Assembly: GCA_013361065.1 (NCBI GenBank)
Contig: JABWAK010000003.1
Coordinates: forward strand, 140-64,139
Source: Bacteroidota bacterium
GTDB lineage: Bacteria; Bacteroidota; Ignavibacteria; UBA10030; UBA8401
Length of the DNA stretch: 64,000 nucleotides
Direction of reading: 5' to 3'
Below, in pieces: positions 1,461-7,864 of the stretch (position 1 is the stretch's first letter; each line of letters starts with the position of its first letter). The notes below the pieces were generated by a model, which saw only the letters and a program-made list of their open reading frames with translations, searched no databases and was not told the origin of the DNA. Both the position numbers and the translations under genes were made by a program.

Positions 1461-2798
1461 ATGCAGCGTCACACGTTCCGCTCCTCACTCGTCCTTTCAC
1501 TCCTTCTCGTTTCCATCTCGCTTGCGCAGGAGGTCTCTCTCAACGATTTCCGCATCCGCGAATCCCGGTACCAGCGGTGGGATATCTCCGGGAGCGGTTC
1601 GATGTATGTGCAGACCGCCGGGAGCGGTTCTTCCACCAATTGGGGTGATGACGGGCGGCTGAATCTCAGTACGAGCTTCAGCAGGGTGTTCAATAGTGAG
1701 GATGAATTCTATCAGTTGTATGCAACATATGGATCAACTCTCTCAAAGGATTTCAACGGCTCACAATATTCATGGGATACTTCCCGGACTGTGTATCGTT
1801 CAGAATATCTCTCCGGTTTTACATCTGTCCTGTATGGGAAATACATCATCCCTGATGCATGGTACATGCATGTCGGGGGAAGTTTCCAGGGAATGAACGA
1901 GCTCACACGGTATGAAAGCCATCGTACCTCCGGGCCTCCGTCAATGTCGTTTAATAAGACAAGAATCGTGAATTCTTATCTGACCGGCGGTGTCGGGTAT
2001 GGCAAGATTCGGGATGCACGGGCGGTGATCGTTATCGTCCGCATCCTGGAGAATCTTTCGGAAGAAGGGGTCCTCGTCCGTCCGCTGAGCAATGATGAGA
2101 TCATTGCCATGGCAGAACAATATCATGCAAATCAGACAACCTCCGGTCAGTACGAACGGAAGACGAAGCACCTGATCGGTGCGATCATCAGCGACCTGTT
2201 GGATAAAGGACTCATCACCGCACAGCAGTCCATCGGATATGTGACCGGCAGGAGTATCGAAGTGTTCTCGGAGCAAATGTATTTTCGTCCGATCGGGTGG
2301 ACGGTGCAGACGGGTCCTTTGTTTGATTTCGATGAGTACCGGTCTTCATCGAGCAATTCTTCCTCTAACTATTCGAGGTTTCCCGATCACCGATGGAGAG
2401 TGTCTGCTGAATATGGCTCTGCGCTGACCCAATTCCTGCATTTCTCATCAAGGGCAACCGTCGATCTGCCGGTGCTCTCATGGCAGCGTCAACTGGAAGC
2501 AAGTATCAGTGCAGCACTGACCCATGAGATCGGGGAGCGGTCATCGGCATCGCTGTCGTTGTCGTGGAGCAAATATGAATCGGTCGGGGATATAGATGAT
2601 CCCGGGAGAAGCCATTCTAATCGTCACAATCTTTACATCGCCGCGGAGTATATATACTTCTTGGAAGATAATCTTTCGTTCAATATCGGAGTGAACTATA
2701 CGGACTATCGGTCGATCGCTCAGCAATTGATACTGACAACACGGGGTGTCCAGAATACCGGGATGGTGAATTTCAACATCGTGTATCGTCTAGATTGA
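1461..2798 (+). CDS. Hypothetical outer-membrane beta-barrel-like protein with signal peptide
   Basis: GGAGGG Shine-Dalgarno sequence 5 nt upstream of the ATG. N-terminus MQRHTFRSSLVLSLLLVSISLAQE looks like a signal peptide. Composition is rich in Tyr/Ser/Gly/Asn with alternating hydrophobic residues near the C-terminus (...GMVNFNIVYRLD). No family recognised. Confidence 0.6.
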   Translation: MQRHTFRSSLVLSLLLVSISLAQEVSLNDFRIRESRYQRWDISGSGSMYVQTAGSGSSTNWGDDGRLNLSTSFSRVFNSEDEFYQLYATYGSTLSKDFNGSQYSWDTSRTVYRSEYLSGFTSVLYGKYIIPDAWYMHVGGSFQGMNELTRYESHRTSGPPSMSFNKTRIVNSYLTGGVGYGKIRDARAVIVIVRILENLSEEGVLVRPLSNDEIIAMAEQYHANQTTSGQYERKTKHLIGAIISDLLDKGLITAQQSIGYVTGRSIEVFSEQMYFRPIGWTVQTGPLFDFDEYRSSSSNSSSNYSRFPDHRWRVSAEYGSALTQFLHFSSRATVDLPVLSWQRQLEASISAALTHEIGERSSASLSLSWSKYESVGDIDDPGRSHSNRHNLYIAAEYIYFLEDNLSFNIGVNYTDYRSIAQQLILTTRGVQNTGMVNFNIVYRLD

Positions 2799-3055
2799 CG
2801 AATATCCTTTGTCGATGATCTTCTCTCTCTGCAGCATGCCTTGTCCCGGTTCTGAAGACGATCCCTCAGTCCTAGACGAGGCATGCTGACATCCGGAGCA
2901 TCCCTTCGCGTACGAATTCCACCGGATTCTGCCATAAATCAGTGAAAATTCCAGTTTTTTCCCCGCCGAAAAAATCGTATCTTTTCGCACAAAAATGAAT
3001 CTATGAACATCCTCCGGTTGCTCTGCAGCGGAGGACATCGTGCGTAAGGAGTCCT

Positions 3056-4609
3056 ATGCCTGCCATCTTCAAGAACGAACCATTCACCGACTTCTCCAAA
3101 CCGGCCAACAAGAAAGCGATGCAGAAGGCGCTCACCAAGGTGCGCGCCGAGCTGGGACGCGAACATCCGATCGTGATCGGCGGCGAGAAGATCATGATGC
3201 CGGAGAAACTCTTCTCCTACAATCCCGCCAAACCGGGAGAGGTGATCGGTATCTTCCAGAAAGCGAATGTGGACCTGGCGAACCGCGCGGTGGAAGCCGC
3301 CGCTGCCGCCTTTGAATCCTGGAAGAATGTCCCTGCGAAGAAACGGGCCGAGTACCTGTTCAAAGCCGCCGCGCTGATGCGCAAGCGCAAATTCGATTTC
3401 TGCGCTCTGCTCACATATGAAGTGGGGAAATCGTGGGCCGAAGCGGATGCCGATACTGCCGAAGCGATCGACTTCCTGGAGTTCTACGGACGCGAGATGC
3501 TCCGCCTTGCCAAGCCGCAGCCGCTCACCAAGATCAAAGAGGAGAAGAACGAACTCCGCTACATCCCGCTCGGCGTCGGTGTCTGCGTTCCGCCGTGGAA
3601 CTTCGCGCTGGCGATCCTTGCCGGTATGGCCACCGCAGCCGTGGTCGCCGGGAACACCGTCGTGCTGAAGCCCTCCTCCGATTCCCCCGCTATCGGCTAC
3701 AAGTTCTTCGAACTGATGAACGAGGTCGGTCTGCCGAAGGGAGTCATCAATTTCATCACCGGACCGGGCGGTTCCGTCGGCGATACGATGGTCGCACACC
3801 CGAAGACCCGCTTCATTTCCTTCACCGGCTCCAAAGAGGTCGGCATCCACATCAACGAGCTTGCGGCGAAAGTGGTGCCGGGACAGATCTGGCTGAAACG
3901 CGTCGTGGCCGAGATGGGCGGGAAGGATTCCATCGTCATCGACAGTGAGACCGATCTGGATGCAGCGGCCGCAGCGACCGTGGCGTCCGCGTTCGGCTTC
4001 CAGGGACAGAAATGCTCCGCCGCATCGCGCGCCATCGTTGTCGCCTCCGTCTACGACAAGTTCGTGGAGAAGGTCGCCGAGCGGACGAAGAAACTCGTGG
4101 TCGGCGCGCCGGAGGATGCCGGAACATATATGGGTCCGGTGATCAACAAGGGCTCCATGGAGAAGATCATGGGATACATCGCCACGGCGGTGAAGGAAGG
4201 GGGCCGCATCGTGGCCGGCGGGAAACATGTGGGCGACGAGGGGTATTTCGTGGAACCGACCGTGATCGCCGATGTGGAACCGATGTCGACCATCGCACAG
4301 GAGGAGATCTTCGGTCCCGTGCTCGGCATCATCAAAGCGAAGGATTTCGATCACGCGATGGAGATCGCCAACAACACCGAGTTCGGTCTGACCGGCGGTG
4401 TCTGGACGAAGAACAAGAAGAAGCAGGAACGGGCCAAGAACGAGTTTCACGCCGGCAACTTCTACATCAACCGGAAGATCACCGGCGCGCTCGTCGGTGT
4501 GCATCCCTTCGGCGGATTCAATATGAGCGGCACCGATTCCAAAGCGGGCGGACGCGACTATCTGCTCCTCTTCACGCAGGCGAAACTGATCTCGCAGAAA
4601 ATAAAATAA
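3056..4609 (+). CDS. pruA: L-glutamate gamma-semialdehyde (1-pyrroline-5-carboxylate) dehydrogenase
   Basis: 517 aa with an AAGGAG Shine-Dalgarno sequence. Aldehyde dehydrogenase motifs present (FTGS, EMGGKD, GQKCSA catalytic Cys). N-terminus MPAIFKNEPFTDFS and the length are typical of RocA/PruA-type P5CDH. Confidence 0.9.
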   Translation: MPAIFKNEPFTDFSKPANKKAMQKALTKVRAELGREHPIVIGGEKIMMPEKLFSYNPAKPGEVIGIFQKANVDLANRAVEAAAAAFESWKNVPAKKRAEYLFKAAALMRKRKFDFCALLTYEVGKSWAEADADTAEAIDFLEFYGREMLRLAKPQPLTKIKEEKNELRYIPLGVGVCVPPWNFALAILAGMATAAVVAGNTVVLKPSSDSPAIGYKFFELMNEVGLPKGVINFITGPGGSVGDTMVAHPKTRFISFTGSKEVGIHINELAAKVVPGQIWLKRVVAEMGGKDSIVIDSETDLDAAAAATVASAFGFQGQKCSAASRAIVVASVYDKFVEKVAERTKKLVVGAPEDAGTYMGPVINKGSMEKIMGYIATAVKEGGRIVAGGKHVGDEGYFVEPTVIADVEPMSTIAQEEIFGPVLGIIKAKDFDHAMEIANNTEFGLTGGVWTKNKKKQERAKNEFHAGNFYINRKITGALVGVHPFGGFNMSGTDSKAGGRDYLLLFTQAKLISQKIK

Positions 4610-4653: not shown

Positions 4654-5763
4654 ATGCCAGAAGAGGAAGTGTTAAAAGAAGAGCTTGAAGATGTGACTCA
4701 AGTAGAAGATGAAACTGAAAAGGATGTTTCTGAAAGCAAAATAGTCTATAACATTACTTCTTACGGTTCGGACCCTGAAGTTGAAGGACTCGTTCAAAAA
4801 TTAAGAAAAGGTGATATTGTGATACCAGCTTTTCAAAGAGCTTTTGTGTGGAAAGAAGAAGATGCTTCTAGTTTTATCGAATCACTTATTTTAGGTCTTC
4901 CAGTTCCGGGTATTTTCCTTGCGACCGAACAGAAAACCAATAGAATGTTGGTAATTGATGGACAACAGAGATTGAAATCTTTACTGTTCTTTTATGAAGG
5001 GTATTTTGACCCGAAAAAAGAGGAAAAGAAACAAAAAGTATTTAAGTTGGTTAATGTACAGCCTCAACTGGAAGGTAAAACATATCAAACATTAGAGGAA
5101 AAAGATAAAAGGCGATTGGATAACTCAATTATTCATGCGACAATTATCAAACAGGAATCCCCCAAAGATGGAGATACAAGTATTTATCATATTTTTCACA
5201 GGTTAAATGCTGGCGGAATGATTTTAAAACCCCAAGAAATACGTAGAGCGGCGTTTCATGGTGCCTTTTTGGATGTGATTTCTGCACTAAATGATTATCA
5301 TAATTGGAGAAAAATATTTGGGAAAAAGAATCGTAGGTTGAAAGACGAAGAATTAATACTTCGATTCTTCGCTCTCTATTTTGATATCGATAGTTATCAG
5401 AAGCCTATGGAAGAATATCTAAATACATTTTGTTCAAAGAAATCAAAGGCTGAATCACAATTTTTTAAAGAGTGCGAATTATTATTTACATCATCTATCG
5501 ATGTATTTTTCGATGCGGTAGGTGATAGAGCGTTTAAACCAAAACGAGTGATAAATGCTGCAGTGTTTGATTCAATGATGGTTGGATTGGCTTCGCGATT
5601 AGCTAAATCTTCGCTTACAGATATAGATGGATTTAGAAATGCATATATTGGTTTAATAGATAATCCAGAGTATCAAAAATATACTACGGATGGGACATCA
5701 GATGTTGCAACAGTCGCGTCAAGAATTAATATGACAAAAGCGGCATTTAGTTCCATCAAATGA
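4654..5763 (+). CDS. DUF262 (ParB-like / GmrSD N-terminal type) domain protein, 369 aa, with no recognisable DUF1524/HNH nuclease domain
   Basis: First ATG after the pruA stop, in the frame of track ORF 4012..5763. Motifs IPAFQRAFVW, DGQQR (4957-4971) and FHRLNAGGMILKPQE are present. 13 of the first 30 residues are D/E. Confidence 0.8.
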   Translation: MPEEEVLKEELEDVTQVEDETEKDVSESKIVYNITSYGSDPEVEGLVQKLRKGDIVIPAFQRAFVWKEEDASSFIESLILGLPVPGIFLATEQKTNRMLVIDGQQRLKSLLFFYEGYFDPKKEEKKQKVFKLVNVQPQLEGKTYQTLEEKDKRRLDNSIIHATIIKQESPKDGDTSIYHIFHRLNAGGMILKPQEIRRAAFHGAFLDVISALNDYHNWRKIFGKKNRRLKDEELILRFFALYFDIDSYQKPMEEYLNTFCSKKSKAESQFFKECELLFTSSIDVFFDAVGDRAFKPKRVINAAVFDSMMVGLASRLAKSSLTDIDGFRNAYIGLIDNPEYQKYTTDGTSDVATVASRINMTKAAFSSIK

Positions 5764-6230
5764 AAAACATTGAACTAGTAAAACAGATTCAACGGATAAA
5801 AGATCTAATCGATAAAACATCGGATGCATCCGCTGATAGCTTGGAACTTCAATCACATTGGGCTAAGTATCTTTGTGTTCTATGTTCGGGTCTATTAGAA
5901 AATTCCATTCCAGAATTGTATGGTGAATACGTAAAAAAGAAATCAAACCAAGAGATAAATCATTTTGTTGTTAGCAACCTAGAAAAATATTTAAATCCTA
6001 AAACAGGAAGGTTCATTGAAGTATCGAATGCATTTAATAAAGATTGGGGTAGAGAACTAGAACTCTTTGTAGATCAAGATGGTCGTAGAGAGGCAATTGA
6101 CGCAATTATCGCAAATAGGCATAAAATTGCACACGGTGAAGATTCTGGTATTACGGTTGTAAAAATAAAGGAATATCTTAAAAGAATTATCGAAGTTCTT
6201 AATTTTATCGAGACCCAAACAAAGAGGTAG
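5760..6230 (+). CDS. Small HEPN-domain protein (Rx4H motif), resembling the MAE_28990/MAE_18760-type HEPN family
   Basis: 156 aa. The ATG overlaps the upstream stop (ATGA, 5760-5763). [13 protein letters not shown] carries R120-x4-H125 (6117-6134). The family name is recalled from memory and not verified. Confidence 0.7.
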
Positions 6231-6235
6231 TTACT

Positions 6236-7399
6236 ATGAAGATCCACGAATATCAAGGCAAAGACATCCTCCGGAAATTCAACGTTCCCGTGCCGCGCGG
6301 TGAAGTGGCGTTCTCGGTGGACGATGCGGTGAATGCCGCGAAGCGGCTCGGCGGCAGCGTCTGGGTGGTGAAGGCGCAGATCCACGCCGGCGGTCGCGGA
6401 AAAGGGGGCGGAGTGAAAGTGGCGAAGAGTCTGGACGAAGTGAAACAGTACGCGAAACAGATTCTCGGCATGACGCTCGTGACCCATCAGACCGGTCCGG
6501 AAGGCCGTCTCGTGAAACGCCTGCTGATCGAAGAAGGGGCGAACATCGACAAGGAATTCTACGTCGGTATCACTTTGGACCGCGCCCAGTCCAAGAACGT
6601 GATGATGGTCTCCACCGAAGGGGGTATGGAGATCGAGAAGGTGGCGGAGGAGCATCCGGAGAAGATCGTGAAAGAGACGATCGAACCGTCCGTCGGATTC
6701 CAGCAGTTCCAGGCGCGCAAGCTCGCCTTCGCGCTCGGCCTGACCGGCGATGCGTTCAAGAACGGCGTGAAATTCCTGCTCTCCCTCTATAAGGCGTATG
6801 AAGCGACCGATGCATCGCTGTTCGAGATCAATCCGCTCGTGGTGACCAAAGAGGGGAATGTGGTCGCGCTGGATGCTAAAGTGAACTTCGACGACAACGC
6901 ACTCTACCGCCATCCGGAATTCGCCGAACTGCGCGATCTGGACGAGGAAGAGCCGCTGGAGATCGAAGCATCCAAGAGCAACCTGAACTATATCAAGCTG
7001 GACGGCAACGTCGGCTGCATGGTGAACGGCGCCGGTCTGGCGATGGCCACCATGGACATCATCAAGCTTGCCGGCGGTGAACCGGCCAACTTCCTGGATG
7101 TGGGCGGCGGAGCGAATGCCACCACCGTGGCGAACGGCTTCAAGATCATCCTGTCCGACAAGAACGTGAAAGCGATCCTCATCAACATCTTCGGCGGTAT
7201 CGTCCGGTGCGACCGTGTGGCGAACGGCGTGGTGGAAGCGGCCAAGGCGGTCCATGTGCAGGTGCCGATCGTCATCCGTCTTGCCGGCACCAATGCCGAT
7301 ATCGCGGCGGACATCCTCCGGAACTCCGGCATGAGCTTCCTCGTCGCCGAGAACCTGAAGGATGCTGCGGACAAGGTGACCAAGGCGCTGGCTGCGTAA
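6236..7399 (+). CDS. sucC: Succinate--CoA ligase (ADP-forming) beta subunit
   Basis: 387 aa. [22 protein letters not shown]..., [15 protein letters not shown] and a C-terminal CoA-ligase domain ([11 protein letters not shown]). Confidence 0.95.
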
Positions 7400-7419
7400 A
7401 CGAACCAACGGGAGGACGG

Positions 7420-7611
7420 ATGAAAGGGATCGAATACGTCGTAGACAGTAAAGGTCGGAAGAAAGCAGTTGTCGTGGATCTGAAAGTCCACGGCGATGCT
7501 TGGGAAGATTTCTATGACTCTCTCACTGCACGGATGCGTGCCAATGAACCGCGTGAATCGTATGCATCTGTCCGCGCAAAGTTAAAATCGAAAGGGAAAG
7601 TCCGTGCGTGA
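7420..7611 (+). CDS. Putative type II antitoxin (63 aa) paired with a RelE/ParE toxin
   Basis: GGAGG Shine-Dalgarno sequence, small size, and its stop overlaps the toxin GTG start. The call rests on position and size; the antitoxin family was not recognised. Confidence 0.55.
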   Translation: MKGIEYVVDSKGRKKAVVVDLKVHGDAWEDFYDSLTARMRANEPRESYASVRAKLKSKGKVRA

Positions 7612-7864
7612 GTACGGACTTCTTTTTACTCGTTCTGCCAGGAAAGAATTGGAGCAAATTCCTGACTCTGCCTGTGAACGCATCCTTTCTGCAGTAGAAT
7701 CGTTGTCACAACATCCGTTCCCCTCCGGTTGTAAGAAGCTGAGAGGGGAACGTCATTTGTGGCGCATTCGTGTCGGTGATTACCGGATCGTTTATTCCGT
7801 TCTTTCCGACCAATTGATCATCGAGATCATCAGAATACGGCATCGGAAAGAGGTGTATCAATAG
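7604..7864 (+). CDS. RelE/ParE family type II toxin
   Basis: 86 aa with a GTG start at 7604. ...KKLRGERHLWRIRVGDYRIVYSVLSDQLIIEIIRIRHRKEVY is the typical RelE/ParE (plasmid stabilisation) core. About 45% GC in a sampled line. Confidence 0.85.
   Translation: MREYGLLFTRSARKELEQIPDSACERILSAVESLSQHPFPSGCKKLRGERHLWRIRVGDYRIVYSVLSDQLIIEIIRIRHRKEVYQ

Follow-up and report, generated by a model that had tools for sequence, protein, structure and literature searches.

What do two short, AT-rich genes do inside a block of housekeeping genes in a member of the Ignavibacteria? The question is raised by a stretch of 64,000 nucleotides (nt) from Bacteroidota bacterium (GTDB lineage Bacteria; Bacteroidota; Ignavibacteria; UBA10030; UBA8401; assembly GCA_013361065.1, contig JABWAK010000003.1, positions 140 to 64,139 of the forward strand), which we refer to as the window. 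The two genes, called A and B here, encode a DUF262 protein and a HEPN protein, and an earlier note on this DNA had described them as a split GmrSD-like layout. Our analysis points to a PD-T4-2-type cassette of two genes for defence against phage, a reading to which we assign a probability of about 0.8. The A-B layout is already known: the operon was listed in 2013 and protection against phage T4 by a homologous pair was reported in 2022. As a discovery, therefore, the locus carries small weight, and what we document is the A-B pair as a tightly co-inherited unit across many phyla.

The two open reading frames (ORFs) share the (+) strand and are flanked by a gene for an aldehyde dehydrogenase (3056-4609) upstream and by sucC (6236-7399) downstream. 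The A start codon follows the dehydrogenase stop codon by 44 nt, and 5 nt separate the B stop codon from the sucC ATG (6236). The ATG of B at 5760-5762 overlaps the TGA of A at 5761-5763, so that B indeed starts inside the stop codon of A, as had been noticed earlier. The features of the locus, with their lengths in amino acids (aa) and the basis for each in brackets, are as follows.

4654-5763, + strand: gene A, encoding a 369-aa ParB-like DUF262 protein, PD-T4-2_A/NsnA-like (ORF, Pfam, PADLOC)
4654-4743, + strand: acidic N-terminal tail of A, aa 1-30, with 13 D/E and 3 K/R (residue count)
4783-5256, + strand: DUF262/ParB-Srx-fold NTPase domain of A, aa 44-201 (Pfam, alignment of homologues, Foldseek, PDB profile)
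4834-4851, + strand: DUF262 motif I, QRxxxW (invariant in the homologue alignment)
4957-4971, + strand: DUF262 motif II, DGQQR (invariant in the homologue alignment)
5194-5208, + strand: DUF262 motif III, FxxxN (invariant in the homologue alignment)
5230-5760, + strand: predicted all-helical C-terminal domain of A, aa ~193-369, the ParBDB equivalent (AlphaFold2, NsnA and PD-T4-2_A models)
5760-5763, + strand: ATGA start/stop overlap of A and B (sequence)
5760-6230, + strand: gene B, encoding a 156-aa stand-alone HEPN protein of the RiboL-PSP family (Pfam, Rx4H, AlphaFold2, hhalign)
6117-6134, + strand: Rx4H motif of B, R120-H125 (conserved among homologues)
6222-6227, + strand: AAGAGG, Shine-Dalgarno-like, within the last codons of B, candidate site for sucC (sequence)

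Protein A matched the Pfam family GmrSD_N/DUF262 at aa 44-201 (E 5e-32), and the residues that define its three motifs, Q61-R62..W66, D102-G-Q-Q-R106 and F181..N185, were invariant in 53 homologues. The AlphaFold2 model built on the homologue alignment (overall predicted local distance difference test score, pLDDT, 85.6) showed an alpha/beta core followed by helices. Foldseek searches with the whole-chain model returned BrxU (7p9k, probability 1.00), SspE (6jiv, 0.96) and the CTP-binding proteins ParB, KorB and Noc as top matches, with low TM-scores, probably because the domain orientations differ. A sequence-profile search of the PDB likewise returned BrxU (E 4e-6). Relatives of A are abundant: at least 6695 homologues had E<=0.001 among the 8000 candidates scored, and the best 120 listed were all at least 51% identical to A. 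One homologue, from Hymenobacter, carries an MTaX1 domain ahead of the DUF262 core.

In GmrSD, BrxU and SspE, the same DUF262 NTPase domain, with its QRxxxW, DGQQR and FxxxN motifs, is followed by a helical middle domain and, at the C terminus of the same polypeptide, by a His-Me DNase or nickase of the DUF1524 type. Protein A, in contrast, ends after the helical domain, and its effector would be a separate predicted RNase. Residues 193-366 of A were modelled as ten helices, mostly with pLDDT >90 and with no beta-beta-alpha metal finger; the C-terminal half thus did not fold as a DUF1524 or HNH nuclease in the model; such a fold had been named in the earlier note as grounds for refuting its reading. 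No match of A to DUF1524, HNH or any other nuclease family was found in Pfam at E<=1, and no histidine after H161 was invariant among the 53 homologues. The conserved polar residues of this domain are R228, K230, D231, E233, R237, N301, D306 and R357. The claim that A lacks a His-Me nuclease therefore held. Since neither the chain itself nor the neighbouring genes (aldehyde dehydrogenase and sucC) supply a DUF1524 domain, the locus is not a member of the GmrSD family, and the description as a split GmrSD-like layout had to be given up: no GmrD/DUF1524 half lies nearby, and the layout is that of the known PD-T4-2-type module.

The region after the DUF262 core, in which the earlier note saw no nuclease motif, can nevertheless be assigned. 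In PADLOC, A matched the NsnA model best (5.7e-67), followed by PD-T4-2_A (1.1e-57), and both matches were colinear with A and near full length, extending to aa 367; in the PD-T4-2_A model (PDLC04027), aa 13-366 of A aligned with model positions 9-362 of 363. Colinearity of both hidden Markov models across A means that its C-terminal half is the same domain as that of NsnA. This domain of NsnA has been named ParBDB and related to the middle domains of GmrSD, SspE and DndB, with a proposed role in DNA binding (Li et al., 2025; PMC12065111). By homology, then, we assign the C-terminal ~175 residues of A to a helical domain of the ParBDB type, with putative DNA binding.

Could A itself cut phage DNA, as a ParB-like nuclease, with the RNase B in a supporting or reserve role? 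Anantharaman et al. (2013; PMC3710099) regard the ParB-like domains of these operons as endoDNases, many homologues carry the JGI label 'ParB-like and HNH nuclease domain' protein, and A has weak PADLOC matches to a type II restriction endonuclease model. However, in the solved structures of BrxU and SspE the DUF262 domain is the NTPase or sensor and it is DUF1524 that cleaves, and the absence from A of any DUF1524, HNH or other nuclease match, together with its all-helical C-terminal half, leaves a DNA-cutting A quite improbable.

The earlier prediction of a stand-alone Rx4H HEPN gene downstream of A was borne out. Protein B matched HEPN_RiboL-PSP (PF18735) with an E-value of 4.9e-18 and 66 bits (cut-off 28.4), and more weakly HEPN_MAE_28990 (PF18737; 1.5e-6). 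Its Rx4H motif reads R120-HKIA-H125, and the segment NRHKIAHG that contains it is the most conserved block in 52 homologues, with H125 and G126 invariant and R120 kept in at least 90% of them. AlphaFold2 modelled B as a 7-helix bundle (pLDDT 96), which together with the Rx4H motif fits the four-helix-bundle core and Rx4-6H motif of the HEPN superfamily. A profile search of PDB sequences with B gave no meaningful match, and hence no solved relative by sequence. The family is large, with 2012 clusters at 50% identity recovered by a HMMER scan of 1.84 billion representatives, 376 of them at E<=1e-30, and the best 150 relatives were all stand-alone proteins, nearly all of ~145-180 aa. A tblastn search of phage genomes with B gave no match.

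Both components have counterparts in published gene pairs. PD-T4-2 was isolated from E. coli ECOR65 by selection against T4 and recorded as 'DUF262, HEPN' (Vassallo et al., 2022; PMC9519451). The authors' HHpred analysis gave PF03235 for PD-T4-2 A and PF18735/PF18737 for PD-T4-2 B; the cloned system protected K-12, and its deletion in ECOR65 restored plaquing by T4 (PMC9519451). Like the locus in the window, PD-T4-2 consists of two genes, encoding a ~360-aa DUF262 protein without DUF1524 and a ~160-aa HEPN protein, and spans 1.54 kb as compared to 1.58 kb here. In ECOR65 it comprises RCO39066.1 and an unannotated ORF downstream of it, at 338334-339873 of contig QOYX01000002. Protein A matches the PD-T4-2_A model PDLC04027, and B, directly downstream, belongs to the same two Pfam families as PD-T4-2 B. 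The relationship is distant, with ~36% identity in A and ~22% in B to relatives on E. coli plasmids. The earlier listing is Table 1 of Anantharaman et al. (2013; PMC3710099), which records 'Ribo L-PSP-HEPN ... operon with ParB': here the HEPN family is again PF18735, with Rx4-6H conserved and a ParB-family gene in the operon. That listing is comparative-genomic, without experiments, and it treats ParB as a DNase; the name RiboL-PSP reflects a rare fusion with endoribonuclease L-PSP that B does not have. Two other HEPN-based systems were considered as identities for this locus and rejected: DARNA, a single-stranded-DNA-activated HEPN tRNase described in 2026, corresponds to PD-T7-3 and is a different protein, and the Ishtar HEPN anti-plasmid proteins are unrelated.

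We then determined how regularly A and B occur together. A contig scan with the single A protein gave no relatives, whereas a profile scan of genome contigs with the alignment of A homologues, keeping one genome per species, yielded 80 A loci. A B homologue lay directly downstream of A on the same strand in 73 of these 80; two more ended at a contig edge, and five had A alone. The paired loci came from Acidobacteriota, Cyanobacteria, Chloroflexota, Bacteroidota, Planctomycetota, Pseudomonadota and one archaeon. The start-in-stop overlap (xTGA) seen in the window recurred in 30 of the 73 homologous pairs, and 11 more overlapped by 1 nt. Starting from B gave the same picture, as three homologues at 36-40% identity each had a GmrSD_N gene ahead of them, overlapping by 4 nt. 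The matrices of pairwise identity of A and of B were correlated (r = 0.73, Mantel p ~0.001, 78 pairs), with B evolving faster than A (mean identity 0.35 vs 0.47 in the same 78 pairs). The pairing is far beyond chance, and A and B form one inherited unit.

Some of the A-B loci lie in defence or mobile settings, including a type III-like methylase and helicase on a conjugative element, an HsdM neighbour, and E. coli and Salmonella plasmids. On the latter, DUF262-HEPN pairs are common, and the partner is labelled 'HEPN domain-containing protein' or 'hypothetical protein' by NCBI. The E. coli plasmid pLR-27_3 (L174, 3948 bp) carries essentially only such a pair and a VbhA-family antitoxin gene, and on IncX1 plasmids (L002 3007-4647) the replication initiator gene overlaps at its end with the DUF262 gene. 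A Dehalococcoidia genome (L051) holds two tandem A-B cassettes (2360-4580 and 5001-6555), the first with a longer A (ORF of ~580 aa). A pair with a 4-nt overlap in a metagenome-assembled genome of Bathyarchaeota (L045 4911-6457) suggests cross-domain transfer, if the binning is right.

The regular presence of the HEPN partner also bears on Menshen, the system to which the best PADLOC match of A belongs. NsnA of Menshen (Millman 2022; PMC12065111) has the same two-domain build as A, ParB-DUF262 followed by ParBDB. Menshen, however, comprises three genes, with NsnA accompanied by the NsnB ATPase and by the effector NsnC (an inactive PIN domain and a nuclease), whereas here a small HEPN partner takes their place. 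Downstream of A lie the HEPN gene and then sucC, with no NsnB or NsnC; the locus is therefore not Menshen. We also weighed whether the locus could be a non-functional remnant of NsnABC after loss of NsnB and NsnC, on the strength of an NsnA score slightly ahead of that of PD-T4-2_A. With neither an NsnB ATPase nor an NsnC gene at the locus, both ORFs intact with all their motifs, and a HEPN gene beside this A subfamily in nearly all loci scanned, we regard a decayed Menshen as very improbable.

A number of observations weigh against the assignment to PD-T4-2. Protein B had no match to the PADLOC model of PD-T4-2_B (PDLC04028), even at E<=1, so that its link to PD-T4-2_B is indirect, made through the shared Pfam families and an hhalign bridge via an E. 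coli homologue. The HEPN partners on the E. coli IncX1 plasmids also missed PDLC04028, and that of pLR-27_3 reached 4.4e-4; hhalign aligned the B family with the pLR-27_3 partner at a probability of 97% (E 1e-10), with the Rx4H motifs in register. We take the miss to reflect a narrow model and not a different fold. As the PD-T4-2_B model misses most of the widespread B family, automated or rule-based annotation of defence systems would skip such loci. Five of the 78 evaluable loci (L043, L054, L057, L071 and L074) have a full-length A and no HEPN gene detectable after it; these are either orphan sensors or cases of partner loss. The genes that follow the five lone A homologues are unrelated, for example uvrA-like or ABC transporter genes. 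Foldseek comparison of the B model with the PDB returned several HEPN proteins, all of them non-significant (E at least 0.5). No A-B fusion protein occurred among the best 150 B relatives, and there is therefore no Rosetta-stone support for physical contact between the two proteins. The host of this DNA is uncultured, and hence no phage is known for it. Finally, our literature search found no biochemical or mechanistic study of any system of the PD-T4-2 type; PD-T4-2, Menshen and Dazbog are grouped in a 2023 review and a 2025 paper as mechanistically uncharacterised systems with DUF262 and no DUF1524, and the 2025 paper calls PD-T4-2 largely uncharacterised.

How might such a pair protect a cell? 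By analogy with BrxU, GmrSD and SspE, A would act as a sensor and switch that recognises some property of incoming DNA, modified bases for example, and would bind or hydrolyse a nucleoside triphosphate (NTP) at the DGQQR pocket. Dimers of B would carry a composite Rx4H RNase site. Once released or activated by A, B would cleave RNA (tRNA, rRNA or mRNA), so that translation and phage growth stop, with abortive infection or growth arrest as the presumed outcome for the cell. The ATGA overlap would keep A and B co-made at a fixed ratio. This sensor-plus-RNase mechanism is plausible, and the NTP-dependent DUF262 sensor with an RNase effector proposed in the earlier note coincides with the hypothesis found in the literature on the family.

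The same gene pair could be read as an addiction module of the toxin-antitoxin kind, with B as a HEPN RNase toxin and A as its protein antitoxin. Such a module would chiefly keep its carrier DNA stable, and phage defence would come second. HEPN toxins with protein antitoxins exist, HepT-MntA being an example, and both the gene order and the overlap of A and B resemble those of type II toxin-antitoxin pairs. The E. coli and Salmonella homologues, moreover, are found on plasmids beside PemIK or CcdAB or directly after a replication initiator gene, in one case on a 3.9-kb plasmid with little else. Neutralisation of a toxin would, however, need less than a protein of 369 aa with invariant NTPase motifs and a DNA-binding-type domain, and a cassette placed in the chromosome between essential-type genes would gain little from addiction. 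The homologous PD-T4-2 protects against T4, and its deletion from the native strain gave a phage phenotype. We therefore consider addiction improbable as the chief role.

For the acidic N-terminal tail of A, the earlier count of 13 D/E in the first 30 residues is correct; the tail is not, however, unusual, as an acidic tail is found family-wide. In the 53 A homologues, the stretch ahead of DUF262 averages 32 residues with 34% D/E and 1.6 K/R, and contains a recurring motif, V/I-x-D-E/D-A/S/T-x-x-D; D19 is invariant (n=53). The tail of the E. coli plasmid homologue, ~36% identical to A, is likewise acidic. Model confidence over the tail of A was low (block-mean pLDDT 43-65), and the tail is a feature conserved in the family and probably disordered. 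An auto-inhibitory or mimicry role, as raised in the earlier note, is speculation. One form that such a role could take, which we consider doubtful, is a built-in nucleic-acid mimic or latch, in which the V-x-D-E-A-x-x-D core would lie at rest on the DNA groove of ParBDB or on the basic RNA face of the HEPN dimer; an NTP at the ParB-like pocket, in combination with phage DNA, would then displace the tail and release the RNase. If true, this latch would couple RNA cleavage to a nucleotide switch of the ParB type, an arrangement undescribed for any immune system. The conserved tail is a concrete starting point for work on how the system acts.

The base composition of the cassette is foreign to its surroundings. 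It forms an AT-rich island of about 33-35% GC in a window of ~60% GC, and the GC content at third codon positions is 0.25 for A and B as against 0.79-0.80 for the flanking genes. From the contrast of 0.25 with 0.80 we infer that the cassette arrived recently, and it would have entered this 60%-GC genome by horizontal transfer. A distant relative (L004; 1.26-Mb contig, genome GC ~42%), whose housekeeping proteins are 63-78% identical to those of the window, carries a cassette 70% (A) and 66% (B) identical to ours at the same Aldedh|sucC junction (4676-7583). In another relative (L088, 155-224) the site is empty, and a spacer of 71 nt separates the two housekeeping genes. The identity of third codon positions between the cassettes of the window and of L004 is only 47%, and the copy in the window has not drifted toward the composition of its host. 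Either the Aldedh|sucC junction is a recurrent landing site, or alleles of the cassette have been exchanged there. A search around the cassette for an integrase, flanking direct or inverted repeats, and promoter or terminator signals found nothing beyond chance. Insertion at the same site with un-ameliorated composition poses a small puzzle as to how defence cassettes that lack an integrase move.

In L004, two small AT-rich genes precede the cassette (4768-5901), encoding a 170-aa zinc-ribbon protein and a 188-aa protein without a family. The 188-aa gene also precedes the cassette on a second contig (L005), with a partial ORF at the position of the 170-aa gene. These two genes may be extra cargo of the same insert.

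No terminator-like site was found between B and sucC, and the A-B cassette is probably transcribed together with the flanking housekeeping genes. Judged by its position and letters, the AAGAGG at 6222-6227 could serve as the ribosome-binding site of sucC. An Rfam scan of the window gave no match.

A toxin gene of the ParE family (7604-7864; PF05016, E 1e-15) follows shortly after sucC, and the small ORF that overlaps it upstream (7420-7864 region) probably encodes its antitoxin. The toxin gene marks a second small accessory insert within the housekeeping block and has no counterpart in the syntenic region of L004. Near the start of the window, a ~110-nt element with internal inverted repeats, resembling repetitive extragenic palindromic (REP) sequences or miniature inverted-repeat transposable elements (MITEs), occurs in three intergenic copies (740-849, 1072-1181 and 1153-1262), and a separate 52-nt direct repeat pair is found at 524-575 and 636-687.
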